A stretch of 64,000 nucleotides of DNA from Escherichia coli (GCF_001677475.2 NZ_CP015229.1); one strand, 5' to 3'. Counted from the first letter of the stretch, positions 1-9,751 are shown. Numbers and translations: made by a program. Notes: generated by a model from the letters alone, not told the origin.

Positions 1-100
1 TGTTACTCTGTTGCCGTTCTTATCCCGATAAATAGCGCCGGGGATAATTTTGGGATGTGCATAACCGCTGGCAGTCAAGCCAGATAAATACGTTCTCATG
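1..100 (-). CDS. Hypothetical protein, 5' end only (gene continues past window start); last visible gene of a coupled minus-strand operon
   Basis: ATG at 100..98 on minus strand, 5 nt after the stop of the 106..426 ORF, preceded by a GGGGA RBS-like stretch; frame open to position 1 (MRTYLSGLTASGYAHPKIIPGAIYRDKNGNRVT...). Confidence 0.35.
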
Positions 101-105
101 ATTAT

Positions 106-426
106 TTATCCCCGATTTGAATCAGTATTCGCTTTCTTTATGGCATTTAATGCATCTGTGGCATTTTCAATGGTGCACCGTAACGAAATATCAAAATGTC
201 CAAGCATTGCCAGTAACAAACCGATATTACCCATATCAATGCGCATGGCCTTTTCGTCATAGTCCTCATTTTCTGACGCATGCCACATCAGGCTACCAAT
301 TGACGCAACGGCCATTGATATATTGTCAGTCGCCCCATCCGCAGCGGAATAAACCTTTTTAGCAATATCATGCTCACAGTTAAAATGCGGATTAATCAGG
401 TACTGGTAATTTGACATATCAGGCAT
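106..426 (-). CDS. Hypothetical protein (106 aa), island cargo, unknown family
   Basis: ORF in track; its start overlaps the stop of the upstream 67-aa gene in the sequence ATGCCTGA (translational coupling). Confidence 0.5.
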   Translation of the reverse strand: MPDMSNYQYLINPHFNCEHDIAKKVYSAADGATDNISMAVASIGSLMWHASENEDYDEKAMRIDMGNIGLLLAMLGHFDISLRCTIENATDALNAIKKANTDSNRG

Positions 427-622
427 GGCACACCCCCTGACGAATACGGGCGGCGAATACCATCACGCAGCCAGCCGGGGAGTGCTGGCGTGCTTCCTGT
501 TCGCTGGTGGCCACGATGGTAATCACACGCGGTTTTGCGGCGCTCAGGGCGATAAAACGCCAGGCGAATTTATTCAGGTTGTGCGAATCCCGCCCTTGCG
601 GGTGTATGGTATGATTTCTCAT
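419..622 (-). CDS. Hypothetical small protein (67 aa), first gene of the minus-strand operon
   Basis: ATG at 622..620 preceded by GAGG at 5-nt spacing; stop overlaps start of the 106..426 ORF. The 334-aa track ORF 419..1423 is judged an artefactual upstream extension. Confidence 0.45.
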   Translation of the reverse strand: MRNHTIHPQGRDSHNLNKFAWRFIALSAAKPRVITIVATSEQEARQHSPAGCVMVFAARIRQGVCHA

Positions 623-660
623 AGCTACCTCGATACTCTCGTTATCGTTGGTGGTTAGAA

Positions 661-706
661 GCCCTGCGAGTGGTAACGACACTTGCGGGGCTTTGTTTTT
701 TGTTGC
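661..706 (+). terminator. Strand-specific intrinsic terminator-like hairpin (12-bp stem with two G-U wobbles, then T-run)
   Basis: GCCCTGCGAGTG...CACTTGCGGGGC followed by TTTGTTTTTT on the plus strand; wobble pairs become C-A mismatches on the minus strand. Confidence 0.35.
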
Positions 707-713
707 ACTTACT

Positions 714-766
714 GTTAATGTACGTACGTAATATTGATGATAATAGGAGTTACGTACGTACATGTC
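714..766. promoter_or_regulatory. Two copies of the self-complementary decamer TACGTACGTA about 32 bp apart; candidate operators for the adjacent RHH repressor
   Basis: TGTACGTACGTAAT at ~718-731 and GTTACGTACGTACATG at ~750-765; the second overlaps the ATG of the 762..953 gene. Confidence 0.4.
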
Positions 767-953
767 AACATTAAAGCGGGATAAATCACCACGCGGCGAG
801 GGATGGTCGCCGACATTCCAGATACGAATTAGCAAAGAACTACGCCAGCAAGTAAACGAGGCAGCAACCGCCGATGGCCTAACCCTCGGCAATTGGTTTA
901 AAGAATTAGCTCGTGCCGAACTAAAGCGACGCGGCATTGAACCTAAAGGCTGA
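762..953 (+). CDS. Ribbon-helix-helix (Arc/MetJ/CopG-like) DNA-binding protein, 63 aa
   Basis: N-terminal beta-strand pattern TFQIRISKELRQQVNEAA typical of RHH repressors; operator palindromes overlap the start codon. Confidence 0.5.
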   Translation: MSTLKRDKSPRGEGWSPTFQIRISKELRQQVNEAATADGLTLGNWFKELARAELKRRGIEPKG

Positions 954-956
954 TGT

Positions 957-1082
957 ATGACTGAAAAGCAGACCGATAACAAACTTTCTCTACCAGAGAA
1001 TAAACCAGCAGGCTTCTTACCAAGAAAAATCCTTGATGAGATCAAACGCCGCCAGCGGCGCAAGGCCAAAGAGCAGGAGTAA
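957..1082 (+). CDS. Small hypothetical protein (41 aa), basic C-terminus
   Basis: ATG 3 nt after the RHH gene stop (TGATGTATGA), same strand; not in track because shorter than 60 aa. Confidence 0.25.
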   Translation: MTEKQTDNKLSLPENKPAGFLPRKILDEIKRRQRRKAKEQE

Positions 1083-1139
1083 CCATCACCAGCGCCGTGG
1101 TGCGGTGAACTGTGGCGCACAGGGTTACAGGTATCTACG

Positions 1140-1319
1140 ATGACTGACAAATCATTAAAGAAATTATCCTCATCCAAGAAAAAACAACGCAAAAATGCGG
1201 TAAACGAACATGAACCGGAGAGATTCGCACCATGTGCGTTTATCCTTGAGAAGTACCTTAAAGAGTATTCTAGGAAAATACGCTCATTGCAGGCATGGCA
1301 GCGAATCGAGCCAGACTGA
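1140..1319 (+). CDS. Small hypothetical protein (59 aa), lysine-rich
   Basis: Manual translation MTDKSLKKLSSSKKKQRKNAVNEHEPERFAPCAFILEKYLKEYSRKIRSLQAWQRIEPD; same strand as the RHH gene. Confidence 0.2.
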   Translation: MTDKSLKKLSSSKKKQRKNAVNEHEPERFAPCAFILEKYLKEYSRKIRSLQAWQRIEPD

Positions 1320-1429
1320 TAGCATTGCCCACCAGCCAACAACCTGGTATTCTGGATATGCTCAAGTTTAGTGTTATGCCACTGGCGGCCCTCTGCGGTC
1401 GCCTTTGTTTTATGTGCCATCACTCCCCC

Positions 1430-1648
1430 TTACACCGTCTGCGTTCTGCGAGTGGATGCAAGATAAGCATCGAGATCAGTGCGCATATACAGCACTTTGC
1501 GCCCCAGCTTATGGAAAGGGATTTTTACCTTGCCAGTACAGGCCCAGTTCGCCAGCGTTTGATTGTTAACGCCAAGGTAGGCAGCAGCTTCAGCACGTGT
1601 AAGGCGGTCAGTTGATAAATCAGATTTCTTTAAATTCATATCTATCAC
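1430..1648 (-). CDS. alpA: AlpA-family prophage regulatory protein (excisionase-like HTH), 72 aa
   Basis: Size and sequence LTRAEAAAYLGVNNQTLANWACTGKVKIPFHKLGRKVLYMRTDLDAYL match the AlpA/Vis family; sits downstream of int as in CP4-57. Confidence 0.7.
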   Translation of the reverse strand: MIDMNLKKSDLSTDRLTRAEAAAYLGVNNQTLANWACTGKVKIPFHKLGRKVLYMRTDLDAYLASTRRTQTV

Positions 1649-1781
1649 CGTGTACTTCTAAGTAACAACGGTGATAAATATCAATCAATGGGTATTTTGT
1701 TTTTAGCCCAATAGCCAGTTGCTGTGGGGAGGTTACCAGTTATTTAGCCTTAATAGCCAGCTATTAAGATACACTAGCCAG

Positions 1782-2507
1782 CTATTGGGGGTGAACAAGT
1801 TCAAACGAAGAATATTTATCAGGTCTTGGTGGTTGTGCTCCTGATTCTTTAATCCATTTATCCAGAGTGTTTTTACTTACTTTCCCATGATAGTAAACAG
1901 AAAGCTCGTTCAATAAACCTGTTTTACTGGCTTTAGGGTACTTTTCCCATGTTAGTTTAATTACGTGCATAACTTCATTGTAATAATGATTTCTTGGTTT
2001 GCGCGCTTTTTCTTTCTGTGATAAGGATAAAGCATCTTTTATTTTTTTATCTTTTTCATGGTTCGATATAATTTCTTCAAAAAAGTCATTAAGCAATAAC
2101 TCAACACCAACCCTAGTAAGTTTGTCTGCGTGATTACGCATTCCGACATGGTACAATGCAACTGCTGAATTTAAAGTATCGACAACCTGACAAGATAGTT
2201 TACTATCAAATATTAAAAAACCACATGAATCCATTCTTATAGCTAATTCAATAGGATATTGCTCGATTTCTCTTAATTCTAAACCATAACACAAAAGAAA
2301 TTCTCTTGTTGGATACTTTGATTTATAAAAATAATCTCTTATATCATCAATCAAGCGTTTTATAGCCTCTATGGTGGAGTTTTTCGGGGATAAAGATACA
2401 GGAACGTTTAAAACTGAAGAGTCTCGCCCACCAGTAATTAAATCATTCATAACCGAATAAATAATATATTGTTTGACCGATATATTGTTATCACCCATAT
2501 ATGTCAT
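1782..2507 (-). CDS. Hypothetical protein (241 aa), strongly AT-rich cargo gene between int and alpA
   Basis: ORF in track; start overlaps the integrase stop (2491..2507); composition visibly more AT-rich than flanking genes. Confidence 0.55.
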   Translation of the reverse strand: MTYMGDNNISVKQYIIYSVMNDLITGGRDSSVLNVPVSLSPKNSTIEAIKRLIDDIRDYFYKSKYPTREFLLCYGLELREIEQYPIELAIRMDSCGFLIFDSKLSCQVVDTLNSAVALYHVGMRNHADKLTRVGVELLLNDFFEEIISNHEKDKKIKDALSLSQKEKARKPRNHYYNEVMHVIKLTWEKYPKASKTGLLNELSVYYHGKVSKNTLDKWIKESGAQPPRPDKYSSFELVHPQ

Positions 2508-3912
2508 TCTTTTCTTGTACTATAGCAAATAGTAAACGACGTTTTTCATCATCACTCATGCCCTCCAGTGCGGAAAGTAATTGCGCATCGATAGATTTTT
2601 TACTCTCCACCAGCCCGGCATGTTCCAGAATTGCCCGTTCTATCCGTGATGCTGGCTCCAGCAGTTCATCAGCACCGAAATGTAAATACCCCTGCGTTAC
2701 GTCGGCACTTCGCATAGTGCGGTGATTCATCAGGCGCTTGAGGATGTAATTACCCACGCCCACCAGCTCAGCAACCGTTCCGAACGTCCGGCGTGCGTCG
2801 TGCCACTTAAACGGGACAGGGAAGAGCATTTCATCGTTCGCCTCAGGAATGGTAGCCGCGCTTATCCGGTCTATGATGTGCCGTGTCTCCTGAATCACTC
2901 CCTTCACGCCAGGAAACACCAGCACATCATCAGCAGCTTTGTTTTTTAGCCTGCGAAGAAACATTTTCCGCAACGTATCAGTGATCGGCAGTTCAAGCGG
3001 ATCCCCGTTTTTCGTGGTGTCTATCCAGAAAAAGCGACCGCCCATATTCACGCGATCCCACGTAAGGCCAAAAACTTCTGATTTCCTCAGTCCGGTAAAC
3101 AGTGCCATTTCCACGGCATCACATACCGTAACAGCTATATCATCCCTTTCCTGTTCGCCCTGGTCGCGCACAGCAGCTACAGCAGCAAACCAGCGGGGAA
3201 AATCATGCAGGCGGATACGTTCCGTTTTTCTTACCGTTCCGTGCCACTGGCGCTTGGTGCTCAGTACCAGAGTCGGCGGATCCGGTAAAAGAGTATTACC
3301 CGCATCATCACGGTAATGATCATGCGCAAACCGACACACAGCACGTAGCGCACGCGCCCATAAATCGGCCTGTGCCTTGCTTCCTGTACCAACCCCAGCC
3401 CGTAACGTGGTTTTATCAGCACCGAACCATACAGCCCCATCAGTGATGGCCTTATGCCGTTGTTCCACCCGTTCGCGGGAAATACTGGCGAGGGTATGGG
3501 CCATCCAGTCACCGGAATAATTCTGTAATATGCTGCGGTACTGTTTTTCTGTGGAGGGTTTCAGGCGGTGGCCACGATTTTTTACGTAGGCGTCAATCGC
3601 CTCACTCAGCGTTATCATGGCCTTGTTGTTAGTGCGCTTTGCTATGTTCGGATTTATCCCCGTTGTGGCGACTTCGCCAAGGAGTTCCATAGCTTTAGCC
3701 CTGGCATTATCCACGCTCAGATCAGGAAAACGCCCCAGCGTTGCACGAATAAATTTTCCGTTACGCTTACGGGAAATGCAGAAACTTTTCACACCAGACG
3801 AACCTACACGGACACGCAGCCCGTTAACCTCCGTATCACCATATTCGACCTGTCCATGTTCCGGCGTTGGCAGTTCTGCAATTTTTACTTTAGAGAATCT
3901 GAATAATTTCAC
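2491..3912 (-). CDS. int: Tyrosine recombinase / phage integrase (P4-family), 473 aa
   Basis: N-terminal arm-binding pattern (EVNGLRVRV...GK...ATLGRFPDLSVDNARAKAMELL) and C-terminal catalytic motifs (HDARRT...GYLH); adjacent to tRNA-derived att site. Confidence 0.85.
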   Translation of the reverse strand: MKLFRFSKVKIAELPTPEHGQVEYGDTEVNGLRVRVGSSGVKSFCISRKRNGKFIRATLGRFPDLSVDNARAKAMELLGEVATTGINPNIAKRTNNKAMITLSEAIDAYVKNRGHRLKPSTEKQYRSILQNYSGDWMAHTLASISRERVEQRHKAITDGAVWFGADKTTLRAGVGTGSKAQADLWARALRAVCRFAHDHYRDDAGNTLLPDPPTLVLSTKRQWHGTVRKTERIRLHDFPRWFAAVAAVRDQGEQERDDIAVTVCDAVEMALFTGLRKSEVFGLTWDRVNMGGRFFWIDTTKNGDPLELPITDTLRKMFLRRLKNKAADDVLVFPGVKGVIQETRHIIDRISAATIPEANDEMLFPVPFKWHDARRTFGTVAELVGVGNYILKRLMNHRTMRSADVTQGYLHFGADELLEPASRIERAILEHAGLVESKKSIDAQLLSALEGMSDDEKRRLLFAIVQEKNDIYG

Positions 3913-4092
3913 TCATACACCCCACCAAGCGATCTGGTATCCTGGAAAATCGCTTGTTCTGCTCCAGGATACCTATAGGATACCGTAAAGAAGTATTTTG
4001 GGGTATATACAGGTATTTATACAGTAGTTTTAAAAAATGCTAAGGTATTGAAAAGTATCGCTAAGTATCTGTAAGTAAAGGGTTATCAACCA
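3913..4092. promoter_or_regulatory. Integrase upstream region with reiterated short motifs (GGTATCC/GGATACC inverted and direct copies; AAGTATC direct copies); candidate int promoter and arm-type sites
   Basis: Visible repeats CTGGTATCCTGG...CCAGGATACC...GGATACC and TAAGTATCGCTAAGTATCTGTAAG. Confidence 0.3.
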
Positions 4093-4139
4093 ACTCATAA
4101 TCGCTTGGTCGCTGGTTCAAGTCCAGCAGGGGCCACCAG
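4093..4139 (+). tRNA. ileX: Truncated tRNA: 3' 47 nt of a tRNA-Ile2(CAU)/ileX-like gene (anticodon loop through CCA); island att site, not a complete tRNA
   Basis: ACTCATAATCGCTTGGTCGCTGGTTCAAGTCCAGCAGGGGCCACCA matches the 3' portion of E. coli ileX as I recall it; no complementary 5' acceptor strand upstream. Confidence 0.6.
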
Positions 4140-4146
4140 ATATAGC

Positions 4147-4182
4147 AAAGGCTGACGAGAAATCGTCAGCCTTTTTCTTTTT
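4147..4182. terminator. Intrinsic terminator hairpin between tRNA fragment and yqjH 3' end
   Basis: GGCTGACGA-GAAA-TCGTCAGCC followed by TTTTTCTTTTT. Confidence 0.5.
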
Positions 4183-4191
4183 ATATATCAG

Positions 4192-4956
4192 TTACTTTGC
4201 GTGCCAGTAAGCCGCTGCACGTACCCGCTGTGGATCATACTGTTCCGCTTCAAAGCGGCGGCTTAAATTCTTAACGACTTTGCCTTCGCCGGTTATCCAG
4301 ATGAAGTAATCATCGGCAGGGATTTGCATCTGCGCCAGACGCGCATCTACTGCCTGCTCATCATGTGCCAGCCATTCGATATTAAAACCATCAAGGTGCG
4401 CGAGATAATCCTGACAGGCGTTATCCCGCACGCTAACCAGCGCACTAACTTGCGGTTTAACGGCAAGTTTGCTCAACGTTTCCAGGCGGCGGCGCAGTGC
4501 GGGCATTCCGGATTCATCGCAGACATACAGCTGATACGCGTAATCTTCCGGCACCACCAGCGAACCGCGGGGACCTGCCACCGTGAGTTTATCGCCCGGT
4601 TGCGCCTGCATTGCCCAGCTGCTGGCGACGCCACCTTCGTGAATAAAGAAATCAATCGCCAGTACATGGCGTAGTTCGTCATACAGCGGTGTATAGTCAC
4701 GCGACGGTGGGCGTGGTCCTTCCGGCCAGACGATGCCCTCTTCCGTTACTGTTGGCGGCACAAAGTGAGCATCAGATTGAGGAAAGAAGAGTTTGCTGTG
4801 ATCGTCAAAGCCGCGCGATGTAAAACCGTCCAGCGCCTCGCCGCCAAAGACAATGCGCTGAAAACCGGCGCTAATACGCTCAACGCGTAGCACAGTCAGT
4901 TCACGGAAGCGCAGATCATTGCGAACGCGCTGCGGGTAGCGGGGGGAGTTATTCAT
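4192..4956 (-). CDS. yqjH: NADPH-dependent ferric-siderophore reductase (siderophore-interacting protein)
   Basis: ORF in track; sequence and position match K-12 YqjH. Confidence 0.9.
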   Translation of the reverse strand: MNNSPRYPQRVRNDLRFRELTVLRVERISAGFQRIVFGGEALDGFTSRGFDDHSKLFFPQSDAHFVPPTVTEEGIVWPEGPRPPSRDYTPLYDELRHVLAIDFFIHEGGVASSWAMQAQPGDKLTVAGPRGSLVVPEDYAYQLYVCDESGMPALRRRLETLSKLAVKPQVSALVSVRDNACQDYLAHLDGFNIEWLAHDEQAVDARLAQMQIPADDYFIWITGEGKVVKNLSRRFEAEQYDPQRVRAAAYWHAK

Positions 4957-4977
4957 TGTTATCGCCTTCGTGATAGT

Positions 4978-5214
4978 AATAAGATATATCTAAATAAATT
5001 TCGTAAATGATAATGATTGTTAATCATGATAAATGCAAGCGATTTGTAGAACTGATACATCTGAGGTATGAGAAGACATTCAACGTCGTAGAAAGGCTGG
5101 CGGATGCGGCGTGAACGTATTATCCGGCCTGGATGTGAGGTGCATTCACGTTTAAAAATCATTTTTATACTTGCAAGAGCGCTCATGTCAGATATAAATT
5201 AGATATATCTAATT
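4978..5214. promoter_or_regulatory. yqjH-yqjI divergent control region with two AGATATATCT palindromes (one within a perfect 18-bp palindrome AATTAGATATATCTAATT)
   Basis: AGATATATCT at 4982..4991 (yqjH side) and 5201..5210 (yqjI side, palindrome spanning 5197..5214). Confidence 0.5.
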
Positions 5215-5232
5215 AAGCAAAAGGAGGCTGAT

Positions 5233-5856
5233 ATGAGCCATCATCACGAAGGGTGTTGTAAACATGAAGGCCAGCCACGCCATGAAGGCTGCTGCAAAGG
5301 TGAGAAGTCAGAACATGAGCACTGCGGACACGGTCACCAGCATGAACACGGTCAATGCTGCGGTGGTCGCCACGGTCGCGGCGGCGGTCGTCGGCAGCGT
5401 TTCTTTGGTCACGGTGAATTGCGTCTGGTGATTCTGGATATTCTCTCGCGCGATGACAGCCACGGTTACGAGTTGATTAAAGCGATTGAAAATCTGACCC
5501 AGGGGAATTACACCCCAAGCCCGGGCGTCATCTACCCGACGCTGGATTTTCTCCAGGAGCAGTCGCTGATTACCATCCGCGAAGAGGAAGGTGGTAAGAA
5601 GCAGATTGCGCTGACCGAACAAGGCGCGCAGTGGCTGGAAGAAAACCGCGAACAGGTGGAGATGATCGAAGAACGCATCAAAGCGCGTTGCGTTGGTGCA
5701 GCGCTGCGCCAGAACCCGCAAATGAAGCGGGCGCTGGATAATTTTAAAGCGGTGCTGGATTTACGCGTCAACCAGAGCGATATCACTGATGCACAAATAA
5801 AAAAGATCATTGCGGTGATCGACCGCGCCGCTTTTGATATTACGCAACTGGATTAA
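5233..5856 (+). CDS. yqjI: PadR-family metal-responsive repressor with His/Cys-rich N-terminus
   Basis: ORF in track; N-terminal MSHHHEGCCKHEG...HEHGQCC tract plus PadR-like core. Confidence 0.9.
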   Translation: MSHHHEGCCKHEGQPRHEGCCKGEKSEHEHCGHGHQHEHGQCCGGRHGRGGGRRQRFFGHGELRLVILDILSRDDSHGYELIKAIENLTQGNYTPSPGVIYPTLDFLQEQSLITIREEEGGKKQIALTEQGAQWLEENREQVEMIEERIKARCVGAALRQNPQMKRALDNFKAVLDLRVNQSDITDAQIKKIIAVIDRAAFDITQLD

Positions 5857-5861
5857 TCACC

Positions 5862-5962
5862 GATTGCCGGATGCGGCGTACCCTACACACCCCGTAGGCC
5901 TGATAAGATGCGCCAGCATCGCATCAGGCATTGTGCTCCAACCGCCGGATGCGGCATACCGA
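5862..5962. repeat. REP/BIME palindromic units
   Basis: GCCGGATGCGGCGTA...GCATCAGGC and CCGGATGCGGCATACC motifs. Confidence 0.5.
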
Positions 5963-7483
5963 TTAATGCAGCACCGTCACCGCGTCTTCCAGTCGGCTGG
6001 CGCGGTGTTTCACCATCGCCGACACCTGCGCACTCTCTTCCACCAGCTCGGCATTTTTCTGGGTGATCAGGTTAAGCTCATCCACTGCACGGGTCAGGCT
6101 GGAAAGCCCATCGGCCTGTTCCAGCGTTGAGTGGCTAATCTGGGCGATCAACTGGGTGACGTTTTTCACCTGTGCCACAATATCTTCCATCGTCCGTCCG
6201 GCGGCGTGTACCTGCTGCGAACCGGATTGCACCTTATCAGCACTGGCATCAATCAGCTTGCGAATATCGTTGGCAGCATTGGCGCTGCGGCTGGCTAAAT
6301 GACGCACTTCCCCTGCCACCACTGCAAAACCTTTGCCTTGTTCGCCGGCTCGTGCCGCTTCCACCGCCGCATTCAGGGCCAGAATATTGGTCTGAAACGC
6401 AATATCGTTAATCAGCGAAGTAATGGTGCCAATGCGCTGGGTACTGTCGGCGATATCGTCCATTGTCTTGATCACCGTGCTCATCGCCTCCCCGCCCTGC
6501 ACTGCCGCATTACTGGCAGTGATAGAAAGTTTATCGGCAGCCGACGCCGTGGCAGAGTTCTGTTTCACCGACGCCGCCATTTGGTTCATGGTCGCCACCG
6601 TTTGCTGAACGTTATCAACTGTCTGCTGGGTATGTTCGTTCAGTTCATCGGTGCCTTTCGCCAGCGTCTCACTGCCGTTTCTGACACTGGACACCTGGCT
6701 TGAGACATCGTTAATTAGCCAACGGCACATCAGGCCAAGCTGCCCTACCGCGCGTAATGTCAGCCCCAGCTCATCGCTGCGATTCAGATGCTCAACACTA
6801 TTACGCTCTCCGGTCGCCACCTTCAGTGACTGACGGGCGACATTTTCTATCGGGCGGACAATCTGCCATTCAAAACAGGCGCTTGCCAACAATACCACTA
6901 ACGCACAGAGGATATACGTCACCACCGGGGCAGCAACAAACCAAAGCATGACCGCCAGCAAGATAAACATCAGGGTCATCACGCCACGCGCCCGCCAGCG
7001 AAGCGGTAATGAAGGCAGTTTACCCAGCCAGCCTTTACGCACCACCAGGCCTTTATGAATACGCTTACTGGTACGTCCGGCGTTCAACGCTTTGTACAGC
7101 GGCTCCACCGCCGCGATCTCTTCATCCGTCGCCCGGGTACGAATCGACATATAGCCACTGATTTTTCCCTCACGCACCATCGGTACCGCATTGGCCCGCA
7201 CCCAATAATGGTCGCCATTTTTGCGGCGATTTTTCACGATGCCGCTCCAGGGCTCCCCTTTTTTCAGGGTGAACCACATATCCGCAAACGCCGCTTTTGG
7301 CATATCCGGGTGACGCACCATGTTGTGCGGCTGCCCTTGTAACTCTTGCAAGGTATAGCCGCTCACCTGTACAAAAGTGTCATTAGCATGAGTGAGATAG
7401 CTTTTCAGATCGGTAGTGGACATCAGAGTGGTATCGTCCGCCAGCGGGGTATTTTGCTGGGTGACATACGAATGAGAAGACAT
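5963..7483 (-). CDS. aer: Aerotaxis receptor Aer (PAS-FAD sensor, HAMP, methyl-accepting signalling domain)
   Basis: ORF in track; PAS N-terminus and MCP signalling domain recognisable. Confidence 0.9.
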   Translation of the reverse strand: MSSHSYVTQQNTPLADDTTLMSTTDLKSYLTHANDTFVQVSGYTLQELQGQPHNMVRHPDMPKAAFADMWFTLKKGEPWSGIVKNRRKNGDHYWVRANAVPMVREGKISGYMSIRTRATDEEIAAVEPLYKALNAGRTSKRIHKGLVVRKGWLGKLPSLPLRWRARGVMTLMFILLAVMLWFVAAPVVTYILCALVVLLASACFEWQIVRPIENVARQSLKVATGERNSVEHLNRSDELGLTLRAVGQLGLMCRWLINDVSSQVSSVRNGSETLAKGTDELNEHTQQTVDNVQQTVATMNQMAASVKQNSATASAADKLSITASNAAVQGGEAMSTVIKTMDDIADSTQRIGTITSLINDIAFQTNILALNAAVEAARAGEQGKGFAVVAGEVRHLASRSANAANDIRKLIDASADKVQSGSQQVHAAGRTMEDIVAQVKNVTQLIAQISHSTLEQADGLSSLTRAVDELNLITQKNAELVEESAQVSAMVKHRASRLEDAVTVLH

Positions 7484-7765
7484 GTTCGCGTCCTGTGCAG
7501 GTTATATGGTTGTTAACTTCTTGTCAGAGTTTATGTCGGCCCCGCTGCGGTTATCTTTAACCGATTAATTTGATTTAGATCGCAATTTGCGATTAAAGCA
7601 CAAATCTAATTCCTTGATTTAAAATACTTTCACTCTGTTACTATACGAAAACGTTAATTATCTTGCCCAAAAATCAGGCAGTTAATGCCCTGAAAGCGTG
7701 CATTTGCGCAGCAATCATCAAATCCATACCCGACAAAAACCGTGCAAAATAACAGCAAATATTAA

Positions 7766-9280
<1,515 letters not shown>

Positions 9281-9286
9281 TATCAA

Positions 9287-9751
<465 letters not shown>

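Follow-up and report, generated by a model that had tools for sequence, protein, structure and literature searches.

attR of a phage-satellite island in the tRNA-Ile(CAU) gene ileX of Escherichia coli: repeated sites on both arms and core-like copies beside int

Introduction

Positions 3913-4139 of the 64,000-nt stretch of E. coli DNA analysed here (GCF_001677475.2, NZ_CP015229.1; hereafter the window) hold part of a tRNA gene at one end and a series of short repeats running up to a tyrosine integrase gene at the other. The locus raises the question of what kind of site this is, where element DNA gives way to host DNA, and what the repeats do. An earlier note had read it as an att junction, made of the 3′ half of ileX and an arm with repeated sites beside int, and that reading is borne out: the region is attR, the right-hand junction of a phage-satellite island of about 11 kb in the tRNA-Ile(CAU) gene ileX.

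Results

The host side of the junction

The tRNA part of the junction lies at 4093-4138 on the + strand (ACTCATAATCGCTTGGTCGCTGGTTCAAGTCCAGCAGGGGCCACCA; 46 nt). From ACTCATAA to the final CCACCA it is 100% identical to positions 31-76 of K-12 ileX (NC_000913 3215598-3215673), including the E. coli alleles of the T arm, and is thus the displaced 3′ part of the native gene. The match starts at position 31, the final base of the 5′ strand of the anticodon stem. Identity to K-12 then extends past the end of ileX, across the terminator, and into nfeF (yqjH). The earlier note had also seen an ileX 3′ fragment but gave it 47 nt; the identity holds and the length does not, because 4139 (G) is the first base past the CCA and belongs to the downstream host DNA.

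Another tRNA with a CAU anticodon had been named as the possible source that would overturn this assignment. K-12 ileY has CAGCAAGGGCC where the window has CAGCAGGGGCC, which rules out ileY as the origin of the fragment. The G67 allele together with the nfeF context excludes ileY and any other CAU tRNA, the ileY flank being different. The note placed the native terminator and yqjH after the fragment, and both are present. The ileX/nfeF terminator is a hairpin with a 12-bp stem at 4147-4174 (no strand assigned), found by a repeat and terminator search and by its match to K-12, and the host gene nfeF occupies 4192-4956 on the - strand (ORF list; comparison with K-12 and E. coli TUM1886). ARAGORN found no complete tRNA in the window. 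An Rfam scan at permissive E-values returned chance-level matches only and did not call the fragment as a tRNA.

The far end of the island and the crossover

Only 4.1 kb of the island, its final part, fall within the window, and attL was read in TUM1886, the nearest complete genome (99.1% identical). This genome serves as a proxy, the best matches to the window showing 98.6-99.1% identity across 6 kb. In TUM1886 the island measures 11.2 kb and ends at an intact ileX beside mug, where PGAP and ARAGORN both call an intact tRNA-Ile(CAU). Joining the two outer flanks, that is, the host-left side of attL and the window from 4093, yields 480 nt that differ from the empty site of K-12 by 2 SNPs, so the insertion was clean and site-specific. 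The TUM1886 type of attL is found in 57 complete E. coli genomes.

Mismatches between attL and attR fall at tRNA positions 50, 59, 60, and 64 and at the base after the CCA. Positions 50 and 64 change jointly, from C-G to T-A, and T-stem pairing is kept; the chimeric tRNA at attL thus reads T50, A59, C60, and A64. The two copies agree only over the 19 nt of a common core (4093-4111, + strand; tRNA positions 31-49), so strand exchange must fall in those 19 nt, which include the anticodon loop CTCATAA at 4094-4100. Two earlier statements fail on this comparison. Host sequence had been said to resume at 4140, whereas the fragment in its entirety is the host's native copy, with the boundary between element and host somewhere in 4093-4111. 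The second boundary had been expected to carry the same 47-nt repeat, whereas in TUM1886 and 56 other E. coli genomes the identity is limited to 19 nt. The missing 47-nt repeat does not refute the att reading; it refines it and maps the crossover. Judged by its alleles, the copy in the window is native, and the 3′ copy that completes ileX was brought by the element together with its own terminator hairpin.

Natural polymorphisms among the relatives bound the crossover to tRNA positions 31/32-48/49. A Buttiauxella relative has the reverse arrangement, with an E. coli-type T arm on the element and ACTGG/CCAGT in the host; its first difference is at position 49, which trims the shared block to positions 31/32-48. 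The base preceding the anticodon loop also differs in some relatives (L034, L076). What is shared, CTCATAATCGCTTGGTC, comprises the anticodon loop, the 3′ strand of the anticodon stem, and the variable loop. Kluyvera and Kosakonia have, as their native allele, the GTTGG/CCAAC T arm that the E. coli element carries, which points to inter-genus transfer.

Anticodon-loop integrases offer an analogy for strand exchange within the 7-nt loop. Elements of this class reportedly restore the tRNA gene, since they bring along everything from its anticodon loop to its 3′ end. The island behaves alike in that the chimeric tRNA at attL is intact and the similarity starts at A31/C32. In attB, as read from the sequence, the stem inverted repeat CAGGCGA / TCGCTTG surrounds CTCATAA, and by analogy the 7-nt loop flanked by this repeat is the likely overlap region. 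Alignments of the relatives found no conservation in the left core half-site of attP (4084-4092), so a canonical C-O-C′ core stays putative.

A metagenome contig of 10,497 nt (L053, IMGVR_UViG_3300010279_000301) has exactly the 47-nt att repeat (A31 through CCA plus A) at both ends. Either the satellite genome is circular or concatemeric, or the contig is a provirus that was trimmed at direct repeats.

The integrase and the island genes

The int gene (2491-3912, - strand; ORF list, translation, and Pfam) starts with GTG and encodes a tyrosine integrase of 473 aa; the RefSeq annotation of TUM1886 has the same CDS. Pfam places an Arm-DNA-bind_3 domain (PF13356) at residues 9-94 (50.4 bits against a cut-off of 27) and the Phage_integrase catalytic domain at residues 266-403 (E = 1.1e-12). 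R276, K301, H371, R374, H397, and Y409 are invariant among seven relatives. The protein thus combines the catalytic residues with a separate N-terminal arm domain, and repeated non-core sequences lie on both arms of attP (see below), which are the marks of a heterobivalent integrase. On these features Int appears to be an uncharacterised example of a well-known type of system, a heterobivalent integrase with a complex att site in a tRNA gene. Among deposited phages (50,697 records) there was no close Int, the best matches being 27-30% identical and from Acinetobacter and Moraxella phages, and a sequence search of the PDB with Int gave no meaningful match.

Besides int, the island carries a variable 240-aa ORF and genes for an HTH_17/excisionase-like protein, an Icd-like protein, a DUF4222 protein, a D5-type primase-helicase, SSB, a lambda E-like capsid protein, a D-like decoration protein, and Nu3-like and Nu1-like proteins. 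Pfam matches on the island include D5 primase, Phage_cap_E, HDPD, and Phage_Nu1, and PHROGs are concordant. The HTH_17 protein (1430-1648, - strand; 72 aa) matches Pfam and the PHROGs excisionase families, which make it a candidate recombination directionality factor or regulator. An int-X-HTH_17 cassette is syntenic in nearly all relatives, with HTH_17 54-100% identical.

Phage-inducible chromosomal islands (PICIs) of the Gram-negative type share a core set of int, a regulator, a primase-replicase, a capsid-like gene, and terS, and are without tail, holin, portal, head-tail connector, and terL genes, while it is genes for a portal, a head-tail adaptor/connector, and terL that define capsid-forming PICIs, or cf-PICIs (de Sousa et al. 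2023, PMC10085698). The PICI gene set is present according to the TUM1886 RefSeq annotation, Pfam, and PHROGs, and no portal, connector/adaptor, or terL gene is annotated in the 11.2-kb TUM1886 island. By predicted gene content, the island fits a PICI-type phage satellite.

Two further observations concern the gene map. A 334-codon ORF at 419-1423 (- strand) has no Pfam match and is probably spurious; the near-identical TUM1886 record does not annotate it and lists an Icd-like gene and two small hypotheticals there instead. About 670 E. coli genomes have sequence 80-98% identical to the non-coding left end of the island (L001 9484-9860), a number well above that of the carriers of int and the att site; the stretch is likely a packaging (cos) or regulatory region shared by a wider group of satellites.

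One composite module on both arms

The motif positions reported earlier between the tRNA and int are correct: GGTATCC at 3936-3942, GGATACC at 3967-3973 and 3978-3984, and AAGTATC at 4053-4059 and 4063-4069. The repeats are real and non-random. Both classes of motif are parts of one composite module, AGGATACC-3-AGGATACC-7-RGTAW-5-RGTAW, that is present on both arms.

In the window, repeats and relatives define a tandem arm-type pair, AGGATACC-TAT-AGGATACC, at 3966-3984 (+ strand), 11 bp from start to start. The first phased RGTAT triplet (3992-4016, + strand; motif scan) begins 7 nt past the pair and completes the module. A second phased series (4044-4078, + strand) consists of AGGTAT (4043), AAGTATC (4053), AAGTATC (4063), and AAGTAA (4073) at 10-bp spacing; among relatives it is conserved in part only (ATTAT / AAGTAT / GGTAA). 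Together the RGTAT sites make up two 10-bp-phased triplets, 3992/4002/4012 and 4044/4054/4064. A further arm-type site is inverted (GGTATCCT, which is AGGATACC on the - strand; 3936-3943) and is kept as RRYATCCT in relatives. Exact matches to AGGATACC number four in the 64-kb window, three of them inside 49 bp. Within the 180-bp arm, GGATAC/GTATCC was seen three times against 0.13 expected, a count reached in 4 of 20000 dinucleotide shuffles, and same-strand RGTAT seven times against 1.2 expected (1 of 20000). The other arm carries the same 21-mer, AGGATACCTATAGGATACCGT, at L001 9368-9388 (the pair at 9368-9386), 47 nt past the tRNA and followed by two RGTAT sites. In TUM1886 (NZ_CP128970) the P′ arm falls at 755,500-755,620.

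Relatives were collected in three ways: 26 viral-contig loci through the integrase (Int 62-100% identical), thirty-eight loci through the 19-mer, and ten loci in species genomes (Citrobacter, Kluyvera, Kosakonia, Trabulsiella, Superficieibacter, Buttiauxella, Erwinia, Yersinia, Xenorhabdus, and Aeromonas), the last enough for hints of co-variation and too few for statistics. The module recurs on the arms of the reconstructed attP in about forty related elements from more than ten genera, at a fixed distance from the core in about twenty-four P arms and about sixteen P′ arms, while the spacers inside it vary freely. It starts 127-128 nt 5′ of the anticodon loop on the P arm and 43-48 nt after the CCA on the P′ arm, always beyond the terminator hairpin, and the RGTAW offsets are held on both. 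From int start to anticodon loop the arm measures 178-182 nt in the relatives. Both GGATA copies are invariant in 18 of 18 Int-ascertained P arms; a stretch of about 20 nt further on is randomised and serves as an internal neutral control in this alignment, which was ascertained by Int only.

The arm motif also varies together with the N-terminal domain of Int. The Buttiauxella element has GGGGATAC on both arms, a concerted variant, and the elements with integrases 62-63% identical to ours (Aeromonas simiae, L025) have tandem GGGGATAT as the arm motif instead. These three share LRLRIT in the N-domain where the others have R[VI]R[VI]G, a co-variation that amounts to two or three independent lineages.

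Given their place directly upstream of int, GGATACC and RGTAT could instead be operators for a transcription factor that controls int, whether HTH_17 or another island or host regulator. GGTATCCTGGA and TCCAGGATACC form a perfect 11-bp inverted repeat, as is typical of operators, the HTH_17/excisionase-like gene keeps its synteny with int in nearly all relatives, and RGTAT recurs at 10-bp intervals, much like the sites to which winged-helix directionality factors bind in tandem. Yet the AGGATACC pair and RGTAW recur some 11 kb away on P′, 43-48 nt past the tRNA and at a fixed distance from the core, where the module adjoins no gene start; the arm motif changes along with the N-domain of Int; and Int has a dedicated arm-binding domain that needs such sites. 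For the motifs as a whole we consider operators improbable, while for the RGTAW part alone they are quite plausible, if somewhat short of an even chance. The AGGATACC sites are most likely arm-type sites bound by the Arm-DNA-bind_3 domain of Int, and their pattern is the one expected of such sites. For the phased RGTAW sites, the most likely ligand is a directionality factor or an accessory protein that bends DNA, with HTH_17 as a candidate, or else Int binding weakly. Nothing conserved was found for the IHF consensus in the P arms of 23 elements and one P′ arm.

Related motifs were seen in two other settings. In L045 (9250-9400, - strand), a P′-arm module (terminator, AGGATACCTATAGGATACC, AGTAA, AGTAT) follows a tRNA-Lys(CUU)-like 3′ half (ACTCTTAATCAATTGGTCGGGAG...), and the core has 14 of the 17 bases of the ileX core; Int lies outside the locus. 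This suggests a relative with retargeted core specificity and unchanged arm sites. L064 (2519-2560) has four to five tandem AGGATA(T/C)C / GGGATACC units at 11-bp spacing in an unrelated-looking context, and no match to Int or HTH_17 was found at that locus.

Core-like copies beside the int start

The earlier note missed two short copies of the core that bracket the inverted arm site at 3936-3943 in opposite orientations. The first, ACCAAGCGAT (3924-3933, - strand; an inverted repeat), is the reverse complement of tRNA positions 38-47 (ATCGCTTGGT) and sits just upstream of the Shine-Dalgarno-like GGTGGGG of int. The second, AATCGCTTG (3948-3956, + strand; a direct repeat), copies tRNA positions 37-45. 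Two matches to the core of at least 9 nt arose in 0 of 5000 shuffles. In 19 of 22 Int-ascertained relatives the copies stand at -169 and -145 from the anticodon loop. The match to the core is lengthened differently by lineage (ACCAAGCGATTA, ATAATCGCTT, ATCGCTTGGTC), with copy 2 reaching ATAATCGCTT or ATCGCTTGGTC, and these extensions match different parts of tRNA positions 35-48. The copies are absent from the Buttiauxella, Aeromonas, and L025 arms, and Erwinia has a third copy directly beside the core.

Inverted repeats so close to the start of int might also act as RNA, with 5′-UTR or alternative hairpins setting int translation or mRNA stability. The int-sense strand of 3895-3975 folds at -24.8 kcal/mol (z = -2.6; 3 of 200 shuffles were as good), and the variants of the inverted arm site (T>C, G>A) are wobble-compatible on the int strand. 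Against this, there are no compensatory double changes, and where one core-like copy is broken the partner copy is left uncompensated (L052, L072, L076), which argues for protein recognition over RNA pairing. Going by the fold, the two helices could not coexist, as a 2-nt loop would have to span an 11-bp stem, and pairing leaves both the identity to tRNA positions 37-47 and the tandem pair on P′ unexplained. We regard an RNA role as very unlikely. A full pseudoknot of the interleaved repeats was rejected as sterically impossible, the hairpin fold being moderately favourable and without compensatory variation.

We return to recognition by protein. By analogy with autoregulated integrases, the favoured role of this pseudo-core would be that of an operator for self-repression of Int through core-type and arm-type contacts. 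On a tentative proposal, which we hold to be possible rather than probable, the pseudo-core is an element dedicated to autoregulation or directionality that both DNA-binding domains of Int read simultaneously. If true, the arm would contain a decoy or sensor of its own, tying int expression to assembly of the intasome. No such pseudo-core is known to us from the described att sites of P4, KplE1, or lambda, and its conservation next to int is the most unusual aspect of the junction. A promoter scan found no sigma-70-like match in 3800-4250. Promoter candidates picked by eye (the conserved CTGTATAAATA; TATAAT in relatives) were set aside for want of convincing -35 boxes or conservation in the window.

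Occurrence, second target, and neighbouring elements

The P arm is present in 86 of 5426 complete E. coli genomes (~1.6%), at nfeF in 72 of the 86. Among E. coli carriers the island is 95-100% identical, and it occupies two different tRNA genes: an Int 100% identical to that of the window adjoins the 3′ half of ileY and the ileY downstream flank, so the same element uses both tRNA-Ile(CAU) genes of E. coli. Loci at the ileY site are L026 (IMGVR_UViG_2565956714_000008) and L008/L065, with K-12 ileY at L077 7763-7838. Phage 186 also targets ileY/ileX (Nilsson et al. 2011, PMC3448106), and islands of STEC use ileX/ileY as targets (PMC9144400).

The ileX gene is also a hotspot for tandem arrays, where ends of a second family of elements abut the identical core. 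That family lies left of the core in L031, L032, L039, L041, L047, L063, and L066 and right of it in L012, L014, L016, L071, L072, and L075. It has a P2/186-like Int C-terminus (...HVLRHTFASHFMMNGGNILVLQ..MRYAHFAPDHL) and motifs of its own, AAAGTGTCGCA or A(A/G)TGGCGAT/GGCAGCA. Elsewhere, P′-arm-like modules (AGGATATTTATAGGATATT, AGGATACCTACAGAATACG) directly follow the attR core, in L070 (Superficieibacter, about 50 nt past the tRNA end) and L021/L059, which indicates tandem copies or remnants of related islands.

Some copies depart from the common arrangement. In L029 and L055 (Int 73-77% identical) the P arm enters the non-tRNA sequence …GGAAGTATTTGCCTT…, while their sister L034 has the ileX core; these may be secondary-site insertions or deletions. 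In E. coli ETEC-2264, 90-9280, and TW10828, attL and attR are about 20.9 kb apart, compared with 11.2 kb, and the island is either larger or doubled. In E. coli HCM-25C-3 (H95), a match of 99.6% identity covers the P arm and ~90 bp from the start of int, then ends at 3826, where the annotation gives an ‘AAA family ATPase’; int may have been truncated or replaced there.

A decayed, immobile remnant with non-functional repeats would be another account of the junction. The window contains the attR side only, and one E. coli genome (H95) has the P arm beside a truncated int region. Int, however, retains its full length and every catalytic residue; the element is found in ~1.6% of complete E. coli genomes, at 95-100% identity and in two tRNA genes; tandem arrays exist; the arm is under clear constraint across genera; and in the 10,497-nt metagenome contig the 47-nt repeat stands exactly at both ends. 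Of the accounts considered, a fossil is the least likely, and we see hardly any chance of it.

Discussion

A model of the junction

The junction is very probably the attR of an 11.2-kb PICI-type island in ileX, with a heterobivalent Int, AGGATACC arm sites, RGTAW accessory sites, and repression of int mediated by the arm. The observations cover how the junction is built, that the insertion is clean and the tRNA chimeric, that the motifs exceed chance, and that the module is present on both arms, conserved, and co-varying with Int; who binds what, the exact cleavage points, and autoregulation of int are the parts that we infer.

In this model, the catalytic and core-binding part of Int would exchange strands in a 17-19-bp core running from the anticodon loop to the variable loop (4093-4111), most likely at the 7-nt anticodon loop, which the anticodon-stem inverted repeat flanks in attB. 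After integration, ileX is rebuilt as a chimera at attL, because the element carries its own tRNA 3′ half and terminator, and the native 3′ half is left at attR. The 180 bp between core and int is the P arm, whose three AGGATACC sites, one inverted and two in tandem, would be bound by the N-domain of Int. The tandem pair is also found on the P′ arm, and the RGTAW sites after each pair would serve an accessory factor or, weakly, Int. The int promoter is placed inside the P arm, so occupancy of the arm sites and core-like copies would be expected to repress int. Negative autoregulation is known where an int promoter overlaps an att arm (Panis et al. 2010, PMC2951348).

For an uncharacterised integrase family that ranges over Enterobacterales and Aeromonas and inserts satellites of PICI type, as well as other cargo, at ileX/ileY, the analysis gives a sequence-level map. 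On it are the core, the two arms with their candidate arm-type and accessory sites, and a natural marker of the crossover. Lysogens would express a chimeric tRNA-Ile2, whose foreign T arm records inter-genus transfer, and ileX is flagged as a hotspot shared with 186-like elements, where integration occurs in tandem arrays. The site definitions could be used in integration and excision assays, in annotating island boundaries, and possibly in a tRNA-targeted integration vector. The current understanding of site-specific recombination is unchanged; the element is of an ordinary, well-understood type and of modest specialist interest.

Comparison with known systems

Like lambda attP (P1-H1-P2-X-F-H2-COC′-H′-P′1-3), the island's att site has arm sites on both sides of a short core, tandem P′ sites, and, next to the arm sites, phased sites that are candidates for the accessory role. 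It differs from lambda in that no IHF consensus was found, one composite module is used in direct orientation on both arms, the core lies in a tRNA gene, and the arm-binding domain comes from another Pfam family.

In satellite P4, which integrates at leuX, repeated sites reportedly flank a tRNA-derived core. Its int is said to point away from attP and to be under repression by both Int and Vis, a small HTH protein. The island resembles P4 as a satellite with a P4-type arm-binding domain (PF13356) and with repeats flanking a tRNA-derived core. Unlike P4, it targets ileX/ileY, its phage Int relatives are at most 30% identical, and its gene set is PICI-like (lambda E/D/Nu1-like) rather than P4-like. 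Its core is inverted relative to int, which puts int at attR; the layout of a P4 prophage, with int beside the intact tRNA and co-oriented with it, is not found here, the intact ileX being 11.2 kb away.

The KplE1 (CPS-53) system of E. coli K-12, with IntS, attL, and TorI at argW (PMC2951348), is likewise a tRNA-targeting heterobivalent integrase. There the int promoter region is an att arm with arm-type, core-type, and directionality-factor sites and int is negatively autoregulated (PMC2951348); for the island, both are predictions made by analogy. In KplE1, int adjoins the intact tRNA in the same orientation (the ‘STI’ shape), whereas the island's int is at the distal end and divergent from the tRNA fragment, with different motifs. 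The core-like pair by the start codon is not part of the KplE1 description (PMC2951348).

Coliphage 186 and P2-like integrases share the chromosomal targets ileY/ileX with the island (PMC3448106). Their integrase is unrelated and short, int lies on the opposite side of the core, and the repeats are AGTGTCGCA / A(A/G)TGGCGAT. Int C-termini of 186-like type, with their own repeats, abut the same core in tandem arrays with the island's family.
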